Source: an uncultured Rhodospirillaceae bacterium (GTDB taxonomy: Bacteria > Pseudomonadota > Alphaproteobacteria > UBA7887). From it: 64,000 nucleotides of DNA. The position numbers and the translations under genes are program-made. Below the pieces are notes generated by a model. The model did not search any database. It was not told the origin of the DNA and worked only from the letters and a program-made list of their open reading frames with translations. Numbering within the stretch: position 1 is the first letter of the stretch; every line of letters starts with the position of its first letter. Below are positions 1-12,304 of the stretch, in pieces. Location: assembly GCA_964408735.1 (NCBI GenBank), contig CAYPAX010000011.1, positions 369 through 64,368 on the forward strand, in the 5' to 3' direction.

Positions 1-210
1 GATCGGCTCGCCGCCATAGCGCGGATGCATCTCCTCGGCAAAGCGCCGGCCATAGACGGCATAAGCGTCGCGGCCGCTGAGCCCGTCGACGCCAAAGCCG
101 TCCGCGGCACGCTCGCGATAGCGCAACAGGTTGAGCATCACAACAGGCTCGTCGAGATCGCCCTCGGCCATTGCGGCGAGCGCTTCGTGGTTCGCGTCTA
201 TGCTCGCCAT
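1..210 (-). CDS. DUF1330-like protein (partial, runs off window start)
   Basis: Not in ORF track. Translated by hand: MASIDANHEALAAMAEGDLDEPVVMLNLLRYRERAADGFGVDGLSGRDAYAVYG... The PVVMLNLLRYR...SGRDAY..Y motif is typical of this family. GGAGG RBS 9 nt upstream; overlaps the hydrolase stop. Confidence 0.7.
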   Translation of the reverse strand, partial: MASIDANHEALAAMAEGDLDEPVVMLNLLRYRERAADGFGVDGLSGRDAYAVYGRRFAEEMHPRYGGEPI

Positions 211-1241
211 TGTCTCATACCTCCCGCTGGCCAGCCGTCCGGCACCGCTGTCGCCAGCCAGGCCGCCAGGGTTGCGTTGACTTCGGCCGGCTTTTCCTGC
301 GCCATCCAATGGCCGCTCGCCACCACTCGTGTCGTCAGTTCGCGGCAAGTATCGAGCATCGGCTCGGCCAGGCGCGAGGTCATGCATTCGCAAGTGGCGT
401 CGTATTCGCCGGCAACGAAGAGCGTCGGCATCTCCAATACGCCGCCATTCACCGCGCGCTCGGCATAGGCGGCATTGGCGGCGTGGTTCATGTAATACGA
501 GCCGGGTCCGAAGAAGCCGTTGCGACCGAGCGCCGCGGCATAGGCGCACAACTCCGCCTCGCTCAGCACCGCATCGTCGCGCGGCACGTCGGGCGGCTCG
601 GCAGCGCCGCCGAACCAGCCGCCGTCGCGGCGCACGAAGGCGGTGCGCGACGGTTTCGACATGGCGGCCGGATCGCCGCGGCGAAACAGTGCCTTGATCG
701 CCTTGGCCGGAGCGGCGTCGAAGGGGGCGATGGCGGTGGCAAAATTCTCTTCGTAGAAACGCATATATTCCCATTGCCCGGCGGGAAATTCGTCCTCCGG
801 GTAGAGCTTTCGGTCGATCAGCGGCAAGAACGAGTCGAGGCCGCGTTCCAGGCCGCACGGCACACAGAGATTGGCGGCGCCATGGCAACGTTCGGGGAAA
901 TGGCTGGCAAGGCTCCAGACGACAGCCGCGCCCCAGTCGTGCCCGACCCAAACGGCACGCTCGGCGCCAAGCGCATCGAGCAGGCCGATCATATCCCCGA
1001 CCACCCGCTCCAGTGCGTAGTCTTCGTGGCGCGCATGAACGCTCGAGCGCCCGTAGCCGCGCATGTCCGGCGCCAGCGCACGAAAGCCAAGCGAACCGAA
1101 GCAAGGCAATTGGTGCCGCCAACTGATGGCAAGCTCGGGCCAACCATGGACAAAGATGATCGGCGGCCCGTCCGAAGGCCCAGCCGCCAAATAGAACGTC
1201 TGATGATCGCCCGTGCGGACGACATGTTCCGTAACAGCCAT
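198..1241 (-). CDS. Epoxide hydrolase-like alpha/beta hydrolase
   Basis: HGWPE oxyanion motif, GHDWG nucleophile Asp, C-terminal GHW His. ATG at 1241 preferred over GTG at 1253. Confidence 0.9.
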   Translation of the reverse strand: MAVTEHVVRTGDHQTFYLAAGPSDGPPIIFVHGWPELAISWRHQLPCFGSLGFRALAPDMRGYGRSSVHARHEDYALERVVGDMIGLLDALGAERAVWVGHDWGAAVVWSLASHFPERCHGAANLCVPCGLERGLDSFLPLIDRKLYPEDEFPAGQWEYMRFYEENFATAIAPFDAAPAKAIKALFRRGDPAAMSKPSRTAFVRRDGGWFGGAAEPPDVPRDDAVLSEAELCAYAAALGRNGFFGPGSYYMNHAANAAYAERAVNGGVLEMPTLFVAGEYDATCECMTSRLAEPMLDTCRELTTRVVASGHWMAQEKPAEVNATLAAWLATAVPDGWPAGGMRQWRA

Positions 1242-1281
1242 ATCCGTCACCACCTGCCCCCAATCCGCAGCTTGACTTTAT

Positions 1282-1297
1282 TGGTTCATATGAACCA
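1282..1297. promoter_or_regulatory. Perfect 16-bp palindromic operator TGGTTCATATGAACCA upstream of the HK-RR operon
   Basis: Exact palindrome read from the sequence, just downstream of a TTGACT -35-like hexamer (1272-1277). Two degenerate copies at 4110 and 4141. Confidence 0.75.
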
Positions 1298-1327
1298 GCC
1301 TACCGGTGACACGCTACCGAGGCAACA

Positions 1328-2782
1328 ATGACCGCCATTCGCTCGCTTCGCAGTTTGCAGCTGATCCACGGCCTGGCGCTGGTGCTGCTTGTGGGCATCA
1401 CGGGTGTCGCGGGCACGGTGGGGCTGGTGTTGAGCGAGCGCTGGACCGCTGAGGCCTTGCGTATCGACAGCCTGCTGCGCCTTGCCGAGGAGGCGCGCGG
1501 CGATCTTTATCGCCAGACGAAAGAGGTGTTCGACTACCACTTTCTTGGCGATCCCGATGCTTCCGACGAGTACCGCGTCTATGGCGAGGCCCTGGCGGCT
1601 AAGCTGACCGAACTCGATCGCCTGGCCCGGGAGCCGGCGGAAAAGACTGTGGTCGCCGGCCTGCTCTCGGCCCAGGCGGCGGCGCGCCTCGATGCCGATG
1701 CCATCATGGCGCGCGAGGCCGGCAGTTTCGGCGAGGCGGAGAAGCTGGCGCTGTTCGACACCGAGCTCGAGGTCGGCAGCCTCGCCGCCGTCGATGCCGC
1801 CCTGGACGCAGCGGCTGCCGAGTTCATTAGGGCGCGCAACGACCTTGCGCGGCGGGTCTCGCGGCTGTCGAACATTGCCCTGATCGTCTTGCTGGTTCCG
1901 GTTATCGCCGCGGCAGCGCTGCTGCTGTTCGCCCAGGGCTTCCTGCAGCGTGCCTTCGTCGCACCCCTGTCCGACCTCTTGCGCGCGCTGGCCGCCTTCG
2001 GCGCCGGGCGCCTGGAAAACCCCGTCGAGGAGCGCGGCGCGGCGGAAATGGTCACCTTGCAACAGGCCATCAACGCCATGACCGAGGAAGTGGCGGATAG
2101 CCGCGCGGCCCTGGTGCGCAGCGAGAAGCAGGCGGCGTTGGGCGCCCTGGTGCCGGTGATCGCGCATAACATCCGCAACCCCCTGGCCAGCATTCGCGCC
2201 ACCGCGCAGGTGCTCCCCGACGCGCCGGACGAGGCCGCCAAGAGCAAGGCCACCAAGGACATCATCAGCGCCGTCGACAGGCTCAATGCCTGGCTGACCT
2301 CCCTGCTCTCCTATCTCGATCCCGGCGGCGCCCACCGCAAGGCGGGCAGACTGGCCGACTGCGCCGATACCGCGCTCTCCCTGCTGGCCGCCAAGCTCGG
2401 CGAAAAAGGCGTCACGGTGACGCGTCAGGACTGGGAAGACGGCAGCAAGGTATCGCTGGATGCCAACCTCATGGAACAGGCCATCTACGGCCTGCTCGTC
2501 AATGCGGCCGAGGCCTCACCGCAGGGCGGGCGGCTGGAACTGGCGGCGGGCGGCGACGATGCCACAAGCTGGCTCTCGATCAGCGACCATGGCGGCGGCT
2601 TGCCTTTCGCTCCGAGCGCCGACGGCGCCATTCCCGGCCCCACTACCAAAACATGGGGCAGCGGCCTGGGCATCCCGTTTGCCTACAAGATCTGCGAGCT
2701 GCATGACGGCACACTGCGCTTCGACGAGGTCGAAGGCGGTGGCACCCGCGCCACCATCTCGCTGCCGGCGGTGTCCCCATGA
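1328..2782 (+). CDS. Membrane sensor histidine kinase (2 TM, periplasmic helical domain, HAMP, HisKA, HATPase)
   Basis: H-box IAHNIRNPL, N-box LLVNAAEA, SDHGGG and GSGLGIP G-boxes; 4-bp overlap with the regulator. Confidence 0.92.
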   Translation: MTAIRSLRSLQLIHGLALVLLVGITGVAGTVGLVLSERWTAEALRIDSLLRLAEEARGDLYRQTKEVFDYHFLGDPDASDEYRVYGEALAAKLTELDRLAREPAEKTVVAGLLSAQAAARLDADAIMAREAGSFGEAEKLALFDTELEVGSLAAVDAALDAAAAEFIRARNDLARRVSRLSNIALIVLLVPVIAAAALLLFAQGFLQRAFVAPLSDLLRALAAFGAGRLENPVEERGAAEMVTLQQAINAMTEEVADSRAALVRSEKQAALGALVPVIAHNIRNPLASIRATAQVLPDAPDEAAKSKATKDIISAVDRLNAWLTSLLSYLDPGGAHRKAGRLADCADTALSLLAAKLGEKGVTVTRQDWEDGSKVSLDANLMEQAIYGLLVNAAEASPQGGRLELAAGGDDATSWLSISDHGGGLPFAPSADGAIPGPTTKTWGSGLGIPFAYKICELHDGTLRFDEVEGGGTRATISLPAVSP

Positions 2783-4089
2783 GCGGCGCAGCCATCCTTG
2801 TCGTCGATGACGAGATCCCGTTCGCCGAGGCGGTGGCGATGCGGCTCGGGCGCGACGGCCACACGGCCCATGTCGCCGGCACGCTCGGCGCGGCGCGCGC
2901 GCATCTGGCCGGGGCGGAGACCGATCTCGTGCTGCTCGACATGCGCCTGCCAGACGGCACCGGCCTCGACCTGCTGGGCGAGATAGCCGGCGTGTCGGTG
3001 GTCGCTGTGACGGCCTTCGGCGATCTCGACAATGCGGTCGAAGCCATGAAGCGCGGCGCGGTCGATTATCTGCGCAAGCCCCTCGACCTCGACGAGCTGG
3101 CGCTGGTCGTCGAACGGGTGCTGGAATCCCGCGAGTTGCGCCGGCGCCTCGACTATTCGGCCGAACGCGAAGCGCATGCCAGCGATGCCACGGCGCTGTT
3201 GGGCGAAAGTCCTGCCATGCGCGCGGCCCGCCACGAGATCGAGACCATCGCCACGGTTGACCACGACGGCGAGGCCCCCAACCTGCTGCTGCTGGGCGAG
3301 ACGGGAACCGGCAAGTCGGTCGCGGCGCGTCTGGTGCACGACCTGGGCCCGCGCGCAGGCCGTCCTTTCGTGCGCATCGATTGTGTCGCCCTGCGCCATC
3401 TCGATGCGAACCGCGAGCTGTTCGGCGGCGGCGGCGGGCCGGGACTTCTCGAAGCGGCAGAGGATGGCAGCCTCTTCCTCGACGAGGTCTGCGAGCTTTC
3501 CGACGAGCTGCAGGCCAAGCTGCTGACAGTCTTGGAAAACCGCTCGTTACGCCATACCAACGACAGTCGCGACGTACCGTTGCGATCCCGTATCATTGCC
3601 GCCAGCAACCGCGACTTGGCGGCAGAGGCGCGCGGCGGGCACTTCCGTGCCGATCTCTATTACCGTTTGGATGTGTTGCATATCCGCTTGCCGGCCTTGC
3701 GCGACTGCCCCGGCGATGCGGCCAGGCTGGCCGAACATTTCATTGCCGAGACCGCGCGGCGCTACGGCCGCGAGGCGCCGAAGCTCTCCAAAGCGGCGGC
3801 AGCGGCGCTGGAACGCTACGACTGGCCCGGCAATGTGCGCGAGCTTGCCCATGTCATAGAGCGCGCCGTGCTGCTCGACCGCAACGGAAGATTGGAGCCG
3901 TCCGCGCTGCCGTTGGCGCAAACCGTGGCAGCAGAACGGGCCGAGCCCTTGAGCTCTCTCGCCGACACCGAGCGCGGCGCCCTCGAACAGGCACTTGGCG
4001 AAGCCGGCGGCAATGTCTCCGCCGCCGCCCGGGCGCTGGGCATCACGCGCATGACCATGCGCTATCGCATGGGCAAATATGGTCTTTGA
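2779..4089 (+). CDS. NtrC-family response regulator (REC-AAA+-Fis HTH) lacking the GAFTGA loop
   Basis: REC with VDD, LLDM (phospho-Asp) and KP; Walker A GETGTGKS; Walker B LFLDEV; WPGNVREL; C-terminal HTH GNVSAAARALGITRMTMRYRM. ELFG is followed directly by GGGGPG. Confidence 0.92.
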   Translation: MSGAAILVVDDEIPFAEAVAMRLGRDGHTAHVAGTLGAARAHLAGAETDLVLLDMRLPDGTGLDLLGEIAGVSVVAVTAFGDLDNAVEAMKRGAVDYLRKPLDLDELALVVERVLESRELRRRLDYSAEREAHASDATALLGESPAMRAARHEIETIATVDHDGEAPNLLLLGETGTGKSVAARLVHDLGPRAGRPFVRIDCVALRHLDANRELFGGGGGPGLLEAAEDGSLFLDEVCELSDELQAKLLTVLENRSLRHTNDSRDVPLRSRIIAASNRDLAAEARGGHFRADLYYRLDVLHIRLPALRDCPGDAARLAEHFIAETARRYGREAPKLSKAAAAALERYDWPGNVRELAHVIERAVLLDRNGRLEPSALPLAQTVAAERAEPLSSLADTERGALEQALGEAGGNVSAAARALGITRMTMRYRMGKYGL

Positions 4090-4109
4090 CATCCGAACGC
4101 AGCCGGTAC

Positions 4110-4156
4110 TGGTTCATATCAGCCAAAACGCGGCTCCAATTGGTTCATTTAAGCCA
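4110..4156. promoter_or_regulatory. Two degenerate operator copies (TGGTTCATATCAGCCA 4110-4125; TGGTTCATTTAAGCCA 4141-4156) upstream of the TonB-dependent receptor
   Basis: 14/16 and 13/16 matches to the palindrome at 1282; starts 31 bp apart (about 3 helical turns); followed by an AT-rich tract. Confidence 0.72.
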
Positions 4157-4207
4157 ATATATATCCTTTAAGAACAATAAGTTACGATAAAATTTTAACA
4201 TTATTGT

Positions 4208-4236
4208 TTGACCACCCCTCCGATCGCCATTACACC
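4208..4236 (+). promoter_or_regulatory. Candidate sigma70-type promoter TTGACC-N17-TACACC
   Basis: Good -35 and canonical 17-nt spacer; weak -10; lies 41 nt before the receptor ATG. Confidence 0.4.
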
Positions 4237-4277
4237 CATCGGACAATAATGACGATGTATCCTCGGGAGGGATATCC

Positions 4278-6764
4278 ATGCCACTTCGGGCCCACCGGGC
4301 GGGCCGGCCGCTTGCCGCCGCCACAGTCTTTCTTGTCGCCACCACCCCAGCTTGGAGCCAGGACGCCCCTGTGTCCGTGCTGCCGGACATCGAGGTCATC
4401 GGCACCACGCCTTTGCTGGGCACGGGCACGCCGGTCGATAAGGTGCCGGGCAACCCGCAGACCCTCTCCGAGGACGAGATCGAGCGCTACCCCAGCAATC
4501 AGCTGATCGACCAGCTGCACAGCCAGCTCAACAGCGTCACCGTGGTCGATGTGCAGAACAGCACCTATCAGAAGGACATCCGCTATCGCGGCTTTGCGGC
4601 TTCGCCGCTGCTCGGCGAGTCCCAAGGCATAGCCGTGTTCCAGAACGGCGTGCGCATCAACGAGGCTTTCGGCGACACGGTGCAGTGGGACCTGATTCCG
4701 GAGCCGGCCATCCGCAGCATGAACCTGGTCAACAACAATCCCGCCTTCGGCCTCAACGCGCTGGGCGGTGCCATCGCCATCGACATGCATGACGGCTTCA
4801 GCTTCCAGGGCATGGAGGCCGAGGCCCATGGCGGCTATTGGGAGCGCTGGGGCACCGAGATGCAGGCCGGCTGGGCCGGCGAGAATTTCGCCGCTTACGT
4901 CGCGGCCGACCACCAGAACGACGGCGGCTGGCGCAACGCATCCAAGTCCGACCTCTCGCGCCTATATGGCGACCTCGCGATGGCCGGCGACGAGTTCCAG
5001 ATCAACTTCAATTTCACCTACGCCGACACCGACCTGATCGGAAACGGCCCGGCGCCAGCGGAAATTCTGGAAGCCAATCGGCGTGCCGTGTTCACCACGC
5101 CCGACGTGACGGAGAACGAGATCTTCTTCTTCCAGGGCAACGGCAGCTACGACATCAACGACACCAGCTCGGTGCAGGCCAACGCCTATTACCGCCGCAT
5201 CACGCGCTCGACCCTGAACGGCGACGAGATCGCCGGTGAGGAATGCGATGCCGCCGCCTTGGGCGCCACCTTCGCCGGCGACGGCAATCTGGCCGCCACG
5301 GTCGGCAACGGTGCCGCCGTGGCCGCGGCACCGGGCGACTATCTTTGCGTCGAGGAAGACGACCCGACGCTGTTGATCGACCAGTTCGGCAATGCGGTCG
5401 GCGCCCCGGCCACTACCCCTGGCGCCAAGAATACGACCTCGACGCAGACCCTCACATACGGTGGTGCCGTGCAGGGCGTGCTCGAGGATACGCTGCTGGG
5501 CATGGACAACACGCTGATATTCGGCACCGCGCTCGATTTCTCGCAGACCCGCTTCCACAACGAGCAACACGTTGTCTCGATCAACTTGGCACGCGCCATC
5601 GTCGATACGGGCTCGCCGATCCTCAATCTTCAGGGCTATACCGCTGCAGTTGCCGGCGGCTCGCTGGTGGCCGGGCAAGGCACGCCAACGCAGATCAAGA
5701 ACACCACGGCCAGCCTCGGCATCTACGCCACCGATACGCTGGACGTCACCGACGACCTCAGCGTCATGTTCGCCGGGCGCTTCAACCGCACCACCAGCGA
5801 TACCAGCGACGAGTTCGTCTATAACGTGGTGCGCGCCGGCACCCTGCAAAGCTCGAGCATCTTCAGCCGCTTCAATCCGGCGCTCGGGTTCACCTATGCG
5901 GTCGCTCCCCTCGGTGCCACCGTCTATGGCGGCGCCAGCGAGAACACGCGCGCGCCGACCCCGGCCGAGCTCGGCTGCTCGGACCCGGCCGCGCCGTGTC
6001 GCTTCCCCAACGCCTTCCTCTCGGATCCGCCGCTCAATCAGGTGGTCTCGCGGACCTTCGAGGCGGGCGTGCGCGGCGCCATACCCGGCCTTCCCGACGA
6101 CCTCGACGTGAACTGGAATTTCAGCCTCTACACCACGACCAATTTCGACGACATCCTGTTCGTTTCGGCCGGCACCGGTCTCGGCGCCGGCTTCTTCAAG
6201 AACGTCGGCGACACGCGCCGCCGCGGCATCGAAGCCAGTGCCAACGGGCGCTGGGGCCGGCTCGGCTTTTATGCCAATTACAGCTTCATCGAAGCGACGT
6301 TTGAATCCGAGTTCACGGTGGCATCGGCCAACCACCCCATGGCGGCATCGCTCGGCGCCGGCCAGAGCATTCCGGTCTCCAAGGGCGACAACATTCCCGG
6401 CGTGCCCGACCACACTTTGAACCTCGGCGTCGATTATGCCCTCACCGAGGAATGGATCCTGGGCAGCACCATGGTCGCCCGCTCCGGCGTCTACCTGCGT
6501 GGCGACGAGGGCAATCTGCTGCCGCGCACCAACGGCTATGCGGTGTTCAACGCCCACACCACTTACGCCCTTGGCGACTATGTGGAGCTGTTCGGGCGCA
6601 TCGAGAACATGTTCGACTTCAATTACGAGACCTTCGGCGTGCTCGGCGAGGTCGGCAACGAGACACCGGTCTACGAGCTGCCCAACGGCATCACGGACCC
6701 GCGCTACCTGTCGCCGGGGCAGCCATTTGCCGCCTATGTCGGCGTGCGCATTAGGCTCAACTGA
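4278..6764 (+). CDS. TonB-dependent outer-membrane receptor
   Basis: Signal peptide (PAWS/QD), TonB-box-like DIEVIG, plug motifs RGFAASPLLG, NGVRINEAFGD and FGLNALGGAI, beta-barrel body, C-terminal YVGVRIRLN; GGAGGG RBS. Confidence 0.93.
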   Translation: MPLRAHRAGRPLAAATVFLVATTPAWSQDAPVSVLPDIEVIGTTPLLGTGTPVDKVPGNPQTLSEDEIERYPSNQLIDQLHSQLNSVTVVDVQNSTYQKDIRYRGFAASPLLGESQGIAVFQNGVRINEAFGDTVQWDLIPEPAIRSMNLVNNNPAFGLNALGGAIAIDMHDGFSFQGMEAEAHGGYWERWGTEMQAGWAGENFAAYVAADHQNDGGWRNASKSDLSRLYGDLAMAGDEFQINFNFTYADTDLIGNGPAPAEILEANRRAVFTTPDVTENEIFFFQGNGSYDINDTSSVQANAYYRRITRSTLNGDEIAGEECDAAALGATFAGDGNLAATVGNGAAVAAAPGDYLCVEEDDPTLLIDQFGNAVGAPATTPGAKNTTSTQTLTYGGAVQGVLEDTLLGMDNTLIFGTALDFSQTRFHNEQHVVSINLARAIVDTGSPILNLQGYTAAVAGGSLVAGQGTPTQIKNTTASLGIYATDTLDVTDDLSVMFAGRFNRTTSDTSDEFVYNVVRAGTLQSSSIFSRFNPALGFTYAVAPLGATVYGGASENTRAPTPAELGCSDPAAPCRFPNAFLSDPPLNQVVSRTFEAGVRGAIPGLPDDLDVNWNFSLYTTTNFDDILFVSAGTGLGAGFFKNVGDTRRRGIEASANGRWGRLGFYANYSFIEATFESEFTVASANHPMAASLGAGQSIPVSKGDNIPGVPDHTLNLGVDYALTEEWILGSTMVARSGVYLRGDEGNLLPRTNGYAVFNAHTTYALGDYVELFGRIENMFDFNYETFGVLGEVGNETPVYELPNGITDPRYLSPGQPFAAYVGVRIRLN

Positions 6765-7408
6765 TGGCCGAGGCCGGCATGTTCGCGAGCGCCTTCGAGA
6801 TGCTCGCCAAGGGCGGGCCGGTGATGATGGTGCTGCTTGCCGTCTCGGGCCTGGCAGCCCTCATCATCATCGCCAAGATGCTGCAATTCGCCCGCCTCAG
6901 CCTGGGCGACTTGCGCTTCGTCGATCCCGCCATGAAAGCGCTTGACGGCAGCGAGCCGAAAGCGGCGATCGCGCTGCTGGCCAAGCGCAAGCACCCTGTG
7001 GCACGGGTGATGGAAAGCGCCATCGCCAGCAGTACCGACTTTCGCCTCGCCGCTGCGGATCGGGATGCGGAGATCAGCCGCGTCGGCAGCGCCCAGATCC
7101 GCGGCCTCGAAAGCCACCTGCGCGGCCTCGAAGTGATCGCCAATCTCAGCCCCCTGCTCGGCCTGCTGGGCACGGTGATGGGCATGATCGGCGCCTTTGC
7201 CAAGCTTGAGGACGCCGGCTCCAAGGTCGACCCGGCGCTGCTTGCCGGCGGCATCTGGGAGGCACTTCTGACCACGGCCTTCGGCCTCGTCATCGCCATC
7301 CCGGCGCTGGCCGCCTACTACGTCCTGGAAGGCCGCGTGGAGAACGTGCGCGCGGCCATGAAAGATGCCGTGACACGCATACTCGGCAGCACGGTGGCAA
7401 GGCGCTAG
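6764..7408 (+). CDS. exbB: MotA/TolQ/ExbB proton channel protein
   Basis: SPLLGLLGTVMGMIGAF and GIWEALLTTAFGLVIAIPA motifs. Confidence 0.9.
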   Translation: MAEAGMFASAFEMLAKGGPVMMVLLAVSGLAALIIIAKMLQFARLSLGDLRFVDPAMKALDGSEPKAAIALLAKRKHPVARVMESAIASSTDFRLAAADRDAEISRVGSAQIRGLESHLRGLEVIANLSPLLGLLGTVMGMIGAFAKLEDAGSKVDPALLAGGIWEALLTTAFGLVIAIPALAAYYVLEGRVENVRAAMKDAVTRILGSTVARR

Positions 7409-7411
7409 AGC

Positions 7412-7819
7412 ATGGATTTCGGCGAGCAGGAACGCGCCAAGCCCCAGCTCAGCATCGCGCCGCTGATCGACGTGGTGTTCCTGCTGCTGGTCTTCTTCAT
7501 GCTCGCCGGCTCGTTCATCCGCCAGACCGCGCTCGACCTTGCCATGGGCCAACGCCCCCTGCCCGCCCAGGCGACGGCCGAGAGCGCCGGCCCTCTCTTG
7601 GTCAAGGTCGCCGGCGACGGCAACATCACCCTAAACGGCCTTGTGCTCAGCCTCGATGCGCTGGGCAGCGAGCTGCTTGGACGAGCCGAGGGCGATGCCG
7701 AGCGCAAGGTGACCTTGCGGGCCGCCGACGCCGTGGCGGTGCAGAGCCTGGTCTCGGTGATGGATCGCATCACCGGCGCCGGCTTCCACAATATCCGCCT
7801 GGCACCACCGGGCTCGTAG
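7412..7819 (+). CDS. exbD: ExbD/TolR protein (copy 1)
   Basis: IAPLIDVVFLLLVFFM with the conserved TM Asp. Confidence 0.9.
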   Translation: MDFGEQERAKPQLSIAPLIDVVFLLLVFFMLAGSFIRQTALDLAMGQRPLPAQATAESAGPLLVKVAGDGNITLNGLVLSLDALGSELLGRAEGDAERKVTLRAADAVAVQSLVSVMDRITGAGFHNIRLAPPGS

Positions 7820-7823
7820 GGCG

Positions 7824-8243
7824 ATGGAATTCAGCGGCAGGAAACGCCTGGACGGCGGCATCAACATGGTGCCGCTGATCAACATCGTCTTTCTGCTGCT
7901 GATCTTCTTCATGCTGTCGAGCACCCTGGTCACCCCCGACAGCCTCGATGTCACGCTGCCCGAGTCCGAGAGCGCGCGCGCGGCCGAGAGCCAGCCCATT
8001 GTGCTCATCGTCGACAGCGAGGGCCGCATCGCCATCAACAATCGGGACGTCCGCGCTGAAGAGGTTGCCGGACGCCTGGCGGGGTTGGCCGAGGCCCATG
8101 TCGGGGCGGGCCTGGTGATCAAGGCCGATGCGGATGCGACATATGCCGATCTTGGCACTTTCCTGCACGCCGCCAAGGGCGCCGGCATCGAGCGCATCGC
8201 GCTGGCCACGCGCGAGCCCGGGCCTGAGGAGCCCGCCCCATGA
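7824..8243 (+). CDS. exbD: ExbD/TolR protein (copy 2)
   Basis: INMVPLINIVFLLLIFFML; the conserved TM Asp is Asn here. Confidence 0.88.
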   Translation: MEFSGRKRLDGGINMVPLINIVFLLLIFFMLSSTLVTPDSLDVTLPESESARAAESQPIVLIVDSEGRIAINNRDVRAEEVAGRLAGLAEAHVGAGLVIKADADATYADLGTFLHAAKGAGIERIALATREPGPEEPAP

Positions 8244-9598
8244 GCGGCGTTCGCTCGTACGAATTCGTCGCTGCGGCCGTGCTTTCCGGCGTGGTGCATG
8301 TGGCCGCCATGGCGGGCGTCATGCTCTATCGGGTGGCGCCCGACGAGGAAGTGCCGGCGCCGATGGTCTATCTCGAGCTGGCCGCGCTCGACGCCGATGC
8401 CTCAGCCGAAGGGCCCGGCGATCCTGCCATGGCGCCAGCGCCCGATCCGCTCGACGAGACCGCCGAGCCGCTGCCGCCCGATGCCATGGCACCTGTGCCG
8501 CTGCCGCCACCGCCACCGCCTGAGCTGGCCGAGATCACACCGCCCGAAGATCTCGCCGAGCCGCCGCCGCCGGAGCTGACACCGCCACCGCCGGAAGAAG
8601 CGCCGATGCCCGAGCTGGCGCCGCCACCGCCCGAGCTGGCCGAGATCCTACCGCCGGCGGACTTGAGCGAGCCGCCGCCGCCCGACCTCGCACCGCCACC
8701 ACCCGAGGTGTTGCGCTTGCCGGATCTGGCACCGCCGCCCCTGCACGAGCTGATCGATGTGGTTTCGTCGGACGATCTTGACGAGCCACCGCCGCCAGAG
8801 CTGACGCCGCCGCCTGAGGTGCTGCGGATGCCCGATCTGGTGCCGCCGCCGCTACAGGAGCTGGCCGAGGTCGTACCGCCCGAGGATCTGGCTGAGCCGC
8901 CACTGCCGGATTTGGCGCCACCGCCGCCTGAGCGTGCGCCGCTGCCCGAGCCCATTCCGCTCGACCGTCCCGAGCCGCCGCCGTTGGAGCTGGCGGCGCT
9001 GCCGCCAGAGCTCGAGCCCTTGCCCGAGATGACACCGCCACCACCGCCTCAGGCGCTGCCCGAGACCTTGCCGCCGCCACCGCCGCGGCGCGACGAGCTG
9101 GCCGAGCTGCCGCGGCCGCGACCCAAGCCCGAGCCGCCGGTGCGCCGCGTCGAGACAGCGCCGCCGCCGGTGCCGCTGCCGGTGGCGCAGCCCGAGCGCA
9201 GGCCGCCGCCGGTCGAGGAGACTCCGCCGCCACCGCGCCAAGTCGCCAGCCTGCCGGCGCCAGTGCCACAACCAGCCCCGCCTGCCGGCCCGTCGCCGGA
9301 AGCCATTGCGGCCTATGGCGGCAGCCTGTTCCAGGCCATCAACACCACGGCAGCGCGCAATTACCCGACCCGGGCGCTACAGCGCAACCGTCAAGGCACA
9401 GTACCGGTGCGCCTGACCATCGACGCCGACGGCGCCCTGCTTTCGGTGCAAGTGCTCGACGACAGCCAGGCCCATTCGAGCCTCGTCAAAGCCGCCGTCA
9501 AGGCCGTGCAAAGGGCCGCCCCCTTCCCCGCCTTCGGCACCGACCTCGGAGGAGGCCAACGCCAGTTCGACGTGCGCATCGTCTACAAGATCCGCTGA
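8240..9598 (+). CDS. tonB: TonB energy transducer with a very long acidic Pro-rich linker
   Basis: N-terminal TM with SxxxH (SGVVH), Pro-rich spacer, C-terminal domain YPTRALQRNRQGTVPVRLTIDADG...AVQRAAPFP. Confidence 0.88.
   Translation: MSGVRSYEFVAAAVLSGVVHVAAMAGVMLYRVAPDEEVPAPMVYLELAALDADASAEGPGDPAMAPAPDPLDETAEPLPPDAMAPVPLPPPPPPELAEITPPEDLAEPPPPELTPPPPEEAPMPELAPPPPELAEILPPADLSEPPPPDLAPPPPEVLRLPDLAPPPLHELIDVVSSDDLDEPPPPELTPPPEVLRMPDLVPPPLQELAEVVPPEDLAEPPLPDLAPPPPERAPLPEPIPLDRPEPPPLELAALPPELEPLPEMTPPPPPQALPETLPPPPPRRDELAELPRPRPKPEPPVRRVETAPPPVPLPVAQPERRPPPVEETPPPPRQVASLPAPVPQPAPPAGPSPEAIAAYGGSLFQAINTTAARNYPTRALQRNRQGTVPVRLTIDADGALLSVQVLDDSQAHSSLVKAAVKAVQRAAPFPAFGTDLGGGQRQFDVRIVYKIR
8510..8953 (+). 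repeat. Four tandem ~111-bp (37-aa) repeats within tonB
   Basis: Units begin near 8510, 8621, 8732 and 8843; consensus PPP(P/L)xELxxxxPPxDLxEPPPP(E/D)LxPPPxExxxxPxLx. Confidence 0.85.
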
Positions 9599-9611
9599 GA
9601 ATTCCGAAGAC

Positions 9612-11015
9612 TCAGCCCTGGTAGTCCATGGCCAGGTCGCCGTTCGCCGCGCAATAGCCGCCCGGACCCGGAGAGCCCGCAAACTCCGACGTTGCTATGG
9701 AGCGCAGAGTGTCCACCCAACCGGGATTGCTGCTCTCGCGGCTCGATATCAGCCAGGTCACGGCGCCGTGGGGCTCGGCGAAGCCGGTCCAGCGGCATTC
9801 CAGGCGGTAGCAGAATTTCACCAGCCGCTGCTCTCCGCTGTCAGCGGCCAAGGCGGCTCTCTCGTCGTCGCCGAGCGGCGCCGCCGCCAGGCTGGCGGTA
9901 CAGGCGAGATCGCTCTCTTCGCTGTGGGCGTCGGCGTTGTCGGGAAACAGCGCCACCAGGCCCTGCTCCGGGGCATCGGAGCGCCAGTGGCCGACCGCGT
10001 TCAGCCGCTCCGCCGCGGCCTCGGGGGCAAGGCCTTCGCTCTCGGCCTGCGCCAGCCAGCCCGAGATCCCTTCGTCGGCCTCCGAGAACACGCCGATCGA
10101 CGATACCCCCGAAAGGCTCATTACGACTCCGGTAGCAAGAATTCCGCCCAATCCCGCCGCGACCATTGCCAGCCCCGGGAGTGCCACCGACACAGCCAGC
10201 CAGCCATTCGTCGGGCGACCCTTGTCCGCCGCAGTATCGCCAGCCGCGCGCGTACGCGCCTCGTAAAGCCGGCAATACTGAGCTCTCATTGCCGGCAGGG
10301 TCGCCAGAGCCAGAGCCGCTCCGACGAGCACGAGCAAGGTGTTGGGATAGTTGATGAGCACACCATAGGCACTATCGCCCCAGGAGAGATTGCTCTCCAA
10401 CGCCAGCTCGCCGACGATATCGCCGACAGCGATCAGAGAAAGGGTGCCTACCAGGGAAGCAAATATTGGCACGAATCCAAACAGGAAATCCCACACAAGC
10501 ATCGGCGGCCGGCCGCGCAAGCCCGGCCAGGTGGCCAGCCGCCGCAGCATCCTGGAGCGGGGAAAAAGCGCGAATACCAGGGTGGCGAGCGCAAAGCAGC
10601 CGGCGGGCAGCACGATCACCAGGATGATCACCGTTTGGATCATCTCGTCGCGCAACTCCAGGGTTCTGATCGCGCCCCACAGCACCGGGTGGGCAAGGTT
10701 GGCGATGGCGACCACGCCGACAAAGGTAACGACCGTCAAGGCGAAGGCGGAGCACGCTACCGTCGCCAACGACAGCGCGCCGAGCCATGGCCGCGGCATC
10801 TCCGGAAGGGGCGTGTCAGCGTCCGCCGCCGGCGGCTTGATCCCGTACGGCACCACGATGGCGACGACGAGAGCGAGCACCACATTCACCACGCTGCCGA
10901 CCATGAAGCCGAGCGCTATCACCGACAACACAAAGACCGCCAGCACAATGACGGCACTGGCGCCAAGGCCGATGTTGGAAGCCAGAGGCCGCGGATCAGG
11001 CAATCGCATGCGCAT
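9612..11015 (-). CDS. Hypothetical multi-pass membrane protein with a C-terminal Cys-containing soluble domain
   Basis: 467-aa ORF with roughly 8 hydrophobic segments; family not recognised. Confidence 0.65.
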   Translation of the reverse strand: MRMRLPDPRPLASNIGLGASAVIVLAVFVLSVIALGFMVGSVVNVVLALVVAIVVPYGIKPPAADADTPLPEMPRPWLGALSLATVACSAFALTVVTFVGVVAIANLAHPVLWGAIRTLELRDEMIQTVIILVIVLPAGCFALATLVFALFPRSRMLRRLATWPGLRGRPPMLVWDFLFGFVPIFASLVGTLSLIAVGDIVGELALESNLSWGDSAYGVLINYPNTLLVLVGAALALATLPAMRAQYCRLYEARTRAAGDTAADKGRPTNGWLAVSVALPGLAMVAAGLGGILATGVVMSLSGVSSIGVFSEADEGISGWLAQAESEGLAPEAAAERLNAVGHWRSDAPEQGLVALFPDNADAHSEESDLACTASLAAAPLGDDERAALAADSGEQRLVKFCYRLECRWTGFAEPHGAVTWLISSRESSNPGWVDTLRSIATSEFAGSPGPGGYCAANGDLAMDYQG

Positions 11016-11122
11016 ATCCTTCTAGGCTTTGCGATATCGTGGGAGATCGATAACGGCGGCCATCACGGTAGCGGATAGCGAGGGACGCTGTCAGCACTTT
11101 CGCTGACCGACTTCAGGCGCTA

Positions 11123-11527
11123 TCAGGCCATGGCCTGAATTATGTCGGTCCACTCATCGATCGATTTTGCGAACGCACGCGTCGTGAGGCCTTCCAAATA
11201 GGCCTGCCCATGATCCGAAATCGCGTGCACGTGACAGGCGACGCCAACGCGGGTCCGCTGCGGGCCATCCGGCGTGCACTGCACATCGACGAAGGCCACT
11301 CGGGAGGCGGGCGTCAGCCTCAGATAGCGCACATGCCATTGCTCGGGCTGCCACAAGAGGCAGGTCCAGAACGTCTTCTCGTCACCCTCTCCGGTGATGA
11401 AGAGCATCTCCTCGCAGGCTTCGCCGCTCTCGGGCCGGATATAGGTGGGGCTCCAGCCCGGCAGCCATGCCTCTTCGCCCTTTGGCGTGAACAACGGGAA
11501 CGCCTCGGACGCGGAGCGAGGCAGCAC
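11123..11527 (-). CDS. Hypothetical SRPBCC/polyketide cyclase-like protein
   Basis: AFPLFTPxGExxWxPGW motif; GTG start; an in-frame ATG-TAG lies 9 codons upstream. Confidence 0.6.
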   Translation of the reverse strand: MLPRSASEAFPLFTPKGEEAWLPGWSPTYIRPESGEACEEMLFITGEGDEKTFWTCLLWQPEQWHVRYLRLTPASRVAFVDVQCTPDGPQRTRVGVACHVHAISDHGQAYLEGLTTRAFAKSIDEWTDIIQAMA

Positions 11528-11572
11528 TATCTCGTGAGAATACGTTTTCTACATGGATTCAAGGGGACACCC

Positions 11573-12304
11573 TCAGTCGTCGCACTCCAGCTCCGCCAGA
11601 CGCATCTCGGCCTGCTCTGTGACGATGTTTTCGTAGGCGTTGTTGGCCGGCAACGTCGCGGCGGCGGTGAGCAGGTCGCGGGCCCGGGGGCAGTAGTCGT
11701 CGTCGAGCAGGGTCAGGCCGATGGCGTATTCGAGATTGACGCCATTATGCTCCGGGGCCAGGGCGTAGGCCTTCTCGAAGGCGGCCAGCGCCCCCTCCTC
11801 GTCGGCGTCGTAGAGCATGCTGGCCATGAGGCTGCCGGCGGCGGCGACGATCTCGGCGTTCCAGGCGCCGATGCTCAACAGCGCCGGCACCATGTTCGGA
11901 TCCAGCGCCAGGGCCTTGTCCATGGCGTCGCGGGTCAACCCGGCATAGCCCTCGCTGAGGGCGTCCACCACGCCGATGGTCTGGGCGTAGCGGCCCATGG
12001 CATGGGAATGCTGCAAGTGGGCCTGGGGATTGGCCGCATCCTCGGCCACGGCGCGCTCGGCAAGTTCGACCGCGCGCACGAACAGCGCCTGCTTGTCGTC
12101 CTCGGCGGCCAGGTAATAGCCGTGCAGGGCAAGGGATTCCGCCGCCATGGCCAGGGAGGCGGAGGTCGCGACCGCCTCACCCAGGTCGGCGGCTTCGAGG
12201 AAACGCCCCTCGTCGTACGCGGCCTGCACCTCAGGCGAGACTTGCGCCAGAACAGGCGATGCCGCGAGCATTGCCGCGACGAAGGTGAGAATCAGGGCTT
12301 TCAT
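11573..12304 (-). CDS. Exported TPR-like helical repeat protein
   Basis: Signal peptide ending VLA/Q; Ala-rich helical repeats with ALALDP and AYALAP TPR ends. Confidence 0.75.
   Translation of the reverse strand: MKALILTFVAAMLAASPVLAQVSPEVQAAYDEGRFLEAADLGEAVATSASLAMAAESLALHGYYLAAEDDKQALFVRAVELAERAVAEDAANPQAHLQHSHAMGRYAQTIGVVDALSEGYAGLTRDAMDKALALDPNMVPALLSIGAWNAEIVAAAGSLMASMLYDADEEGALAAFEKAYALAPEHNGVNLEYAIGLTLLDDDYCPRARDLLTAAATLPANNAYENIVTEQAEMRLAELECDD

Follow-up and report, generated by a model that had tools for sequence, protein, structure and literature searches.

A conserved 16-bp dyad as candidate operator of a GAFTGA-less NtrC-family response regulator and a TonB-dependent uptake operon in uncultured Alphaproteobacteria

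Introduction

In Escherichia coli, NtrC acts at glnAp2 from two strong dimer sites that lie three helical turns apart and more than 90 bp upstream of the promoter that it activates, and at glnLp it represses its own operon from a single site overlapping a sigma-70 promoter. The dyads described here resemble this layout of tandem upstream sites plus a single autorepressing site. They lie at a locus in 64,000 nucleotides of DNA from an uncultured Rhodospirillaceae bacterium (contig CAYPAX010000011.1 of assembly GCA_964408735.1; the whole stretch is called the window below). The locus encodes a sensor histidine kinase (HK), a response regulator (RR) of the NtrC family, a TonB-dependent receptor, ExbB, two copies of ExbD and TonB. 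One dyad, O-HK, stands before the HK gene, and two, O1 and O2, stand before the receptor gene. E. coli NtrC possesses the GAFTGA motif and serves a -24/-12 promoter, whereas the RR is missing the corresponding loop and its locus has no such element between genes. An earlier reading of this DNA from its letters alone (the sequence-only reading) had proposed that a shared operator links the HK-RR operon to the receptor-exbB-exbD-exbD-tonB operon. Conservation of the dyads and their recurrence at a paralogous locus support the core of that proposal, and by sequence comparison the dyads are very probably the binding sites of the adjacent RR.

Bacterial enhancer-binding proteins (bEBPs) that lack GAFTGA and activate or repress transcription at sigma-70 promoters are already known, namely NtrX, HupR, TyrR/PhhR, HsfA, VpsR and the NtrC proteins of Caulobacter and Rhodobacter capsulatus (PMC6158489; bioRxiv 10.1101/2023.06.06.543975). 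NtrB/NtrC of R. capsulatus has been described as a sigma-54-independent, ATP-dependent activator system of the housekeeping RNA polymerase (Bowman & Kranz 1998, in the account given by bioRxiv 10.1101/2023.06.06.543975). The RR shares with R. capsulatus NtrC the order of receiver (REC), AAA+ and helix-turn-helix (HTH) domains, the deletion of the L1/GAFTGA loop with retention of the ATPase motifs, tandem dyads about 100 bp before a predicted non-sigma-54 promoter, and a cognate kinase gene immediately upstream. The RR is, however, not an orthologue of that protein (244 bits against the ntrC model, with a cut-off of 558.6), and its deletion arose independently, in a clade with GAFTSA sisters. 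Its putative operator is TGGYTSATATSARCCA, and its target would be a TonB uptake machine, not nitrogen genes. NtrB of R. capsulatus is cytoplasmic, whereas the HK appears to be a membrane sensor with a predicted periplasmic domain. With NtrX, Caulobacter NtrC, HupR, TyrR/PhhR, HsfA and VpsR the RR has in common the bEBP superfamily, the lack of a functional GAFTGA and, as predicted here, sigma-70 promoters. Our literature searches found none of these atypical bEBPs in control of a TonB-dependent receptor that comes with an ExbB-ExbD-ExbD-TonB set of its own.

Modules that couple a dedicated sensor to a TonB-dependent receptor, and thus both sense and import, are represented by PfeSR and PirSR of Pseudomonas and by FecIRA-type transducers. 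PfeR and PirR are OmpR-type regulators, whereas the RR is a bEBP derivative that would also drive a private ExbBDD-TonB set. In receptors of the FecA type, an N-terminal extension passes the signal on to an anti-sigma factor; the receptor of this locus is without such an extension. XibR of Xanthomonas, an orphan NtrC-like iron regulator, was judged not to be comparable. Literature searches on the RR family and on NtrC-type control of exbB or tonB gave no specific paper.

The RR adds a new family, with a new target, to a mechanism that is already known, and overturns nothing. With it, a candidate operator, a promoter layout and a regulator become experimentally addressable for an uncharacterized TonB-dependent uptake module that is widespread in uncultured marine Alphaproteobacteria and known from metagenomes only. 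In any complete genome of the group, a search with the operator could delimit the regulon, and reporter constructs built on it could be screened for the inducing substrate. An independently derived GAFTGA-less clade also joins the few known sigma-54-independent enhancer-binding proteins.

Conservation of the dyads

The pattern TGGTTCATNNNARCCA has three matches in the 64 kb of the window, at O-HK, O1 and O2, and none in 100 dinucleotide shuffles. Allowing up to two mismatches produced no further match in the window, and a weight-matrix scan of it produced no other site of at least 9 bits, which bears out the remark of the sequence-only reading that there was no other full copy. The hexamer TTGACT (1272-1277) and the perfect palindrome that it had described upstream of the HK gene (1282-1297) lie where it had placed them. 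The same is true of the two degenerate copies upstream of the receptor gene (4110-4125 and 4141-4156), the starts of which are 31 bp apart. This spacing is shared with close relatives only; elsewhere the dyads are 19-21 or 40 bp apart.

Orthologous loci of 10-15 kb each were drawn from contigs and metagenomes, in which the regulator has many relatives. Regulator identity to the RR is 86% in L081, 85% in L001, about 84% in L091-L093 and 54-58% in L082, L084 and L096-L098; L087, at 50%, is the locus of an orthologue that bears GAFTSA. The order HK-RR-receptor-ExbB-ExbD-ExbD-TonB is common to all receptor-bearing orthologous loci, the contig of L098 ending one gene past the receptor. Across loci with regulators 51-86% identical to the RR, the dyad consensus is YGGYTSATATNARCCA. 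Before the HK gene, the arrangement CTTGAC-N5-TGGyTgATATnAACCA recurs in seven loci that represent at least three diverged lineages, and the DNA on either side of it is not conserved. The HK-proximal sites of L001, L081, L082, L084, L096, L097 and L091 score 24-27 bits. Between the RR stop codon and the receptor gene, one to three dyads are present in all 10 receptor-bearing loci. The sequence-only reading had made its operator depend on conservation upstream of orthologous HK and receptor genes, and such conservation was found in every receptor-bearing lineage examined.

A held-out test gave a similar picture. A matrix built from five loci identified 13 sites of at least 14 bits in five other loci (70 kb), all of them at the two expected places, before the HK gene or in the gap from the RR stop codon to the receptor gene, with the exception of L098, which has no HK dyad. 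Twelve of the 13 reach at least 16 bits, the exception being a site of 14.1 bits in L096 (8454-8469). As a control, 899 kb around 79 unrelated NtrC paralogues with 32-42% identity to the RR contained seven sites of at least 14 bits, a density about 24-fold lower; the search that supplied these paralogues also returned one true orthologue, L001.

Assignment of the dyads to the response regulator

No transcription-factor gene other than that of the RR is conserved across the loci. The gene upstream of the HK gene varies, being a hydrolase gene in the window, DUF1330/RidA in L081 and a porin gene in L082, L084, L096 and L097, and the dyad stays. The possibility that the palindrome is the operator of the divergent alpha/beta-hydrolase gene was rejected, because the dyad is also found in orthologous loci that have other genes at that place.

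The motif also occurs with a paralogue that bears GAFTSA. At its locus, L086 (8478-8604), a perfect sigma-54 promoter, TGGCACGCATATTGCT, has a dyad, CGGTTGTTATCAACCA, some 105 bp ahead of it, and the two precede different genes: unannotated genes and those for a Peripla_BP_6 protein, an ABC-2 permease and NosR. The occurrence of the dyad at a different target operon ties the motif to the HTH of the regulator family and not to the target genes. Tandem TGGTTGAT half-sites are found in L100, the regulator of which is 49% identical to the RR.

A pattern for the HK promoter, TTGACNNNNNTGGYTSATATNAACCA, was also used to scan metagenomes. It gave eight matches, four of which fall at orthologous HK-RR loci. 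The remaining four are considered below with the alternatives.

The regulator and the loss of its L1 loop

The RR consists of a receiver, an AAA+ domain and a Fis-type HTH_8 domain (Pfam PF00072, PF00158 with an E value of 1e-37, PF25601 and PF02954). Its L1/GAFTGA loop is deleted, the protein reading ELFGGGGGPGLLEAAEDGSLFLDE at the loop position, and the "GAFTGA-less activator" of the sequence-only reading is confirmed in this respect by the protein sequence. Relatives have ELFGHxxGAFT[SG]AxxxRxGLIEAAE where the RR has ELFGGGGGPGLLEAAEDG, a deletion of nine residues; in the alignment, RELFGGGGGPGLLEAAEDGSLFLDEV of the RR stands opposite ELFGH(V/E)(R/K)GAFT(S/G)A....GLIEAAE of its relatives. 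In an alignment of 19 sequences, Walker A (G173-K179), Walker B (D235-E236), N277, R290/R296 and R354 are invariant, as are the receiver residues D11, D54 and K100 and the Arg fingers. The HTH of the family, GNVSAAAR.LGI(T/S)RM.MRYRM.K(Y/H)G, is nearly invariant. The RR scores below the cut-off of every named NCBIfam equivalog, with 273 bits for AtoC (cut-off 714), 268 for NtrX (267.6; cut-off 600), 244 for NtrC (cut-off 559, or 558.6 unrounded), 240 for ZraR (cut-off 760) and 169 for TyrR (cut-off 576). The best reading of these features is that of an atypical NtrC-family enhancer-binding response regulator, predicted to be independent of sigma-54.

The 120 best homologues were placed in a tree, in which 33 loop-deleted proteins make up a single clade with a support of 99. 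One further loop-deleted protein groups with P0052, the regulator of L087, and the remaining 86 carry GAFT[SGNDH]A or GAYT[GS]A. These 86 loop-bearing homologues (the P0025-P0121 family) mostly have GAFTSA, GAFTNA or GAFTDA, not the canonical GAFTGA.

L087 has retained GAFTSA in an identical porin-HK-RR-receptor-exbBDD-tonB locus with the same dyads, which indicates that both locus and operator are older than the loop deletion. In the region before its receptor gene (8461-8687) there is TTGACA-N18-TTTAAA and no -24/-12 element; the only sigma-54-like site of L087, TGGCACAGAAATTGCG, is found some 220 bp ahead of the HK-proximal dyad (5158-5173). It is tempting, if still doubtful, to regard the RR family as a natural record of a bEBP that was rewired from sigma-54 to sigma-70. 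Such a history, which we put forward tentatively, would make the recognition helix, the TGGYT-N6-ARCCA operator, the tandem layout and the whole locus older than the loss of L1. It fits with the grouping of the 33 loop-deleted proteins in one clade and with the GAFTSA sister of L086, which has the same dyad together with a perfect -24/-12 promoter; L087, where a GAFTSA orthologue stands before a promoter of the -35/-10 type, could be an intermediate. If this is true, swaps of the L1 loop and of the core promoter could reveal the minimal changes that turn a sigma-54 activator into a sigma-70 activator. Close GAFTSA sisters with the same DNA specificity make the family a favorable natural system for the question of how these ATPases adopted the housekeeping polymerase.

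Promoters of the receptor and kinase operons

Upstream of the receptor gene, a search of positions 1-12000 of the window for -24/-12 elements (TGGCAC-N5-TTGC, up to two mismatches) gave no intergenic match, its three matches all lying within coding sequence; L086, with its perfect site, was the positive control. An anchored alignment of nine loci contains only two conserved blocks before the receptor gene, ttnTTTGAC and a 'TA' 17 nt downstream. This -35 box lies 67-71 nt before the ATG of the receptor gene in all but two of the nine loci; the distance is shorter in L096 (51 nt) and in L098 (40 nt). The weak -10 element of the window is consistent with an activator-dependent promoter, for which the transcription start is a prediction.

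The distance from dyad center to -35 box ranges from 59.5 to 144.5 bp among lineages. In five lineages, however, all dyad phases fall at 4.5-8.0 of a 10.5-bp turn, and this clustering holds for helical repeats of 10.3-10.7 bp. Differences close to whole helical turns are as expected for an activator that has to face RNA polymerase. The DNA between the RR and receptor genes has a GC content of 0.36-0.43 in the orthologous loci (0.51 in L098), compared with 0.59-0.66 for whole loci. The IHF-like element that the sequence-only reading had pointed out, GAACAATAAGTTA, is present at 4172-4184, as a weak match with two mismatches to WATCAANNNNTTR; in the AT-rich tracts of other lineages, strings resembling TCAA-N4-TT were seen by eye only. 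With two mismatches and in AT-rich DNA, such an element is weak evidence alone, and an IHF site is plausible but not established.

At the HK promoter, O-HK begins exactly 5 nt after CTTGAC, a frame fixed in seven loci, and is centered 17.5 bp past the first base of this hexamer. Should CTTGAC be the -35 box, a bound RR dimer would lie over both spacer and -10 region, a geometry that argues for autorepression. NtrC-type proteins are known to repress their own operons (bioRxiv 10.1101/2023.06.06.543975). From the position of the site, repression of the HK-RR promoter by the RR at O-HK appears to be the better-supported outcome.

Proposed mechanism and alternatives

We propose that the membrane HK senses a periplasmic cue and phosphorylates the RR at D54. 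The phosphorylated RR would occupy O1 and O2 in tandem, at about -126 and -95 relative to the predicted start of the receptor-exbB-exbD-exbD-tonB operon, and act across the AT-rich, probably bent tract to activate a weak sigma-70-type promoter (TTGACC-N17-TAcacc) in the mode of R. capsulatus NtrC on the housekeeping RNA polymerase. At the single O-HK dyad, which spans the presumed spacer and -10 region, the RR would most likely exert negative autoregulation, as NtrC does at glnLp. In this proposal, the identity of the binding protein, the direction in which each promoter is regulated, the transcription starts, the signal and the substrate are the parts that we infer. Activation of the receptor operon from a non-sigma-54 promoter is likely, and the proposal taken whole, comprising RR dyads, activation of the receptor operon and probable autorepression, is one that we favor on balance. 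The "self-contained regulon" of the sequence-only reading is a proposal, viewed here across the 64-kb window and the loci of 10-15 kb.

Several observations weigh against it. Intergenic DNA of the nearest relatives (85% regulator identity) is 90% identical to that of the window and adds little: close relatives are weak witnesses, and it is the lineages with 54-58% identity that are informative. L098 has no HK-proximal dyad. In the sub-clade of L083 and L085, the HTH is near-identical, yet there are neither dyads nor a receptor gene. The other four of the eight metagenome matches lie in unrelated low-GC DNA, one of them within a gene and one with three tandem dyads; we judged these to be chance or to reflect another system. 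The -10 elements before the receptor gene are poor (TACACC, TAAATG, TAAGTA and TATACC), and a strict sigma-70 consensus scan of 1100-9800 called no promoter. The phase clustering comes from only about five independent lineages, with -35 boxes called by the analyst, and alternative -10-like hexamers in the AT-rich tract (e.g. TAAAAT at 4185-4190) would put O2 near -48. Before the HK gene, no -10-like hexamer is recognizable at 16-19 bp after CTTGAC in any lineage, where all have CCAnnn, and for this reason the occlusion reading rests on the assignment of the -35 box.

The alternatives differ in how much of this they can accommodate. The RR could be a pure repressor at both promoters, like NtrX, with the signal relieving repression of the uptake operon. 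NtrX provides a precedent for an atypical bEBP with a repressor role (PMC6158489), the dyad before the HK gene lies within the core of the promoter there, and the hexamers beside O2 could bring an alternative promoter close. Set against this, only one -35/-10 frame is conserved, and the receptor dyads stand 60-145 bp ahead of it, keeping their phase while the distance changes by whole turns; weak -10 elements are typical of activator-dependent promoters, the ATPase motifs are strictly conserved, and the sister paralogue has the same dyad as the activating upstream site of a sigma-54 promoter. We consider pure repression improbable. Somewhat more room is left for positive autoregulation, in which the RR, bound between -35 and -10, would aid RNA polymerase at the HK promoter: many two-component systems auto-amplify, and a promoter with no -10-like hexamer could need such aid. 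A dimer over the spacer and the -10 region is, however, in the classical occluding position, and self-repression by NtrC-type proteins is documented (bioRxiv 10.1101/2023.06.06.543975), so that this outcome, too, seems unlikely.

Two further explanations would remove the dyads from the RR altogether. They could belong to a transcription factor encoded elsewhere, such as a global nutrient regulator, and their proximity to the HK and RR genes would then reflect coincidental co-regulation. The assignment to the RR is by sequence comparison, and the four low-GC contigs as well as the dyad-free loci L083 and L085 could be read in this way. The motif nevertheless tracks the regulator family through changes of upstream genes (hydrolase, porin, RidA/DUF1330) and of target operon (L086), no other conserved regulator gene lies nearby, the 899 kb around unrelated NtrC paralogues have a density of high-scoring sites about 24 times lower, and a 16-bp dyad fits the dimer of a Fis-type HTH. 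An unlinked factor is accordingly a very improbable owner of the dyads. That the repeats are chance or non-regulatory, such as a mobile-element remnant or a recombination site, has nothing but their small copy number in its favor; with no shuffle matches and with conservation that is position-specific between unconserved flanks, at 51-58% protein identity, this explanation is effectively refuted.

Two side observations concern the loci just named. In L083 (5230-8486) and L085 (5242-8464), whose loop-deleted regulators are P0015 and P0020, exbB-exbD-exbD-tonB lies directly 3' of the regulator gene, and L083 keeps the CTTGAC-N5 frame, followed by GGGCGGGGCGGGGCCA. In L090, a low-GC metagenome contig, three tandem TGGTT...AACCA-like dyads (TTGGTTAACATAAAC, TTGGTTCATATTGACCA and TTGGTTGATATCAACCA) lie at 1150-1260; no kinase or regulator homologue was found in their context, and they are probably the operator of another regulator.

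Features of the locus

The features are listed in Table 1. Gene calls in the window agree with those of the sequence-only reading, and the RR start codon overlaps the HK stop codon (ATGA).

Table 1. Genes, dyads and predicted promoter elements of the locus, in window coordinates
Feature	Position	Strand	Remarks
Alpha/beta hydrolase gene	198-1253	-	Divergent from kinase gene
CTTGAC, -35-like box of the HK-RR promoter	1271-1276	+	5 nt before dyad
O-HK, perfect palindrome TGGTTCATATGAACCA	1282-1297	none	16 bp
Sensor histidine kinase (HK)	1328-2782	+	Pfam HAMP-HisKA-HATPase_c
Response regulator (RR)	2779-4089	+	Pfam Response_reg, Sigma54_activat, AAA_lid_14, HTH_8
O1, distal upstream dyad TGGTTCATATCAGCCA	4110-4125	none	Center about -126 from predicted start
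O2, proximal upstream dyad TGGTTCATTTAAGCCA	4141-4156	none	Center about -95
AT-rich tract with IHF-like GAACAATAAGTTA (4172-4184)	4157-4207	none	17.6% GC, window 64.5%
Predicted sigma-70-type core promoter	4208-4236	+	TTGACC (4208-4213)-N17-TACACC (4231-4236)
TonB-dependent receptor	4278-6764	+	Pfam Plug and barrel
ExbB	6764-7408	+	Start overlaps receptor stop
ExbD, first copy	7412-7819	+	Pfam
ExbD, second copy	7824-8243	+	Pfam
Long TonB, 452 aa	8240-9598	+	C-terminal TonB_C domain

At window positions 4255-4277, GTATCCTCGGGAGGGATATCC forms an imperfect hairpin that spans the Shine-Dalgarno sequence of the receptor gene; it is identical in L001 and L081 and absent in more distant lineages. A strict terminator scan of 1100-9800 called none 3' of tonB. 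Convergent with tonB, positions 9612-11015 of the minus strand encode a predicted multi-pass membrane protein of 467 aa, which has no Pfam or NCBIfam match and is not kept beside the module in other loci. Four metatranscriptome runs contained zero reads on the locus.

A hydropathy scan of the HK places two hydrophobic segments, TM1 and TM2, at about residues 12-36 and 180-206. Because these bracket a helical domain of about 140 aa, it is plausible that this domain is a periplasmic sensor; it is from the two-segment topology only that we infer a periplasmic ligand for the kinase.

The receptor consists, by Pfam, of a Plug domain (53-165) and a barrel only, with no N-terminal signaling (STN) extension, and no sigma or anti-sigma genes were found in the locus. 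All of its NCBIfam scores, including those for heme, siderophore, B12 and PqqU receptors, are far below the cut-offs, the best being 52 bits for heme (cut-off 317) and 50 for PqqU (cut-off 1200). A link to pyrroloquinoline quinone or lanthanides was dropped, being unsupported by the PqqU score. A sequence search of the PDB gave no match for the receptor, which is of an uncharacterized subfamily.

A gene of the phosphate-selective porin family (Porin_O_P) lies directly 5' of the HK gene in L082, L084, L087, L096 and L097 (about 3400-5470). We also considered the porin of these five loci as a regulatory target and rejected it, as no dyad precedes the porin gene. In L098 and L086, an NMT1-type ABC transporter is encoded 5' of the kinase gene. 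The upstream porin and the NMT1-type transporter may hint at an anionic substrate.

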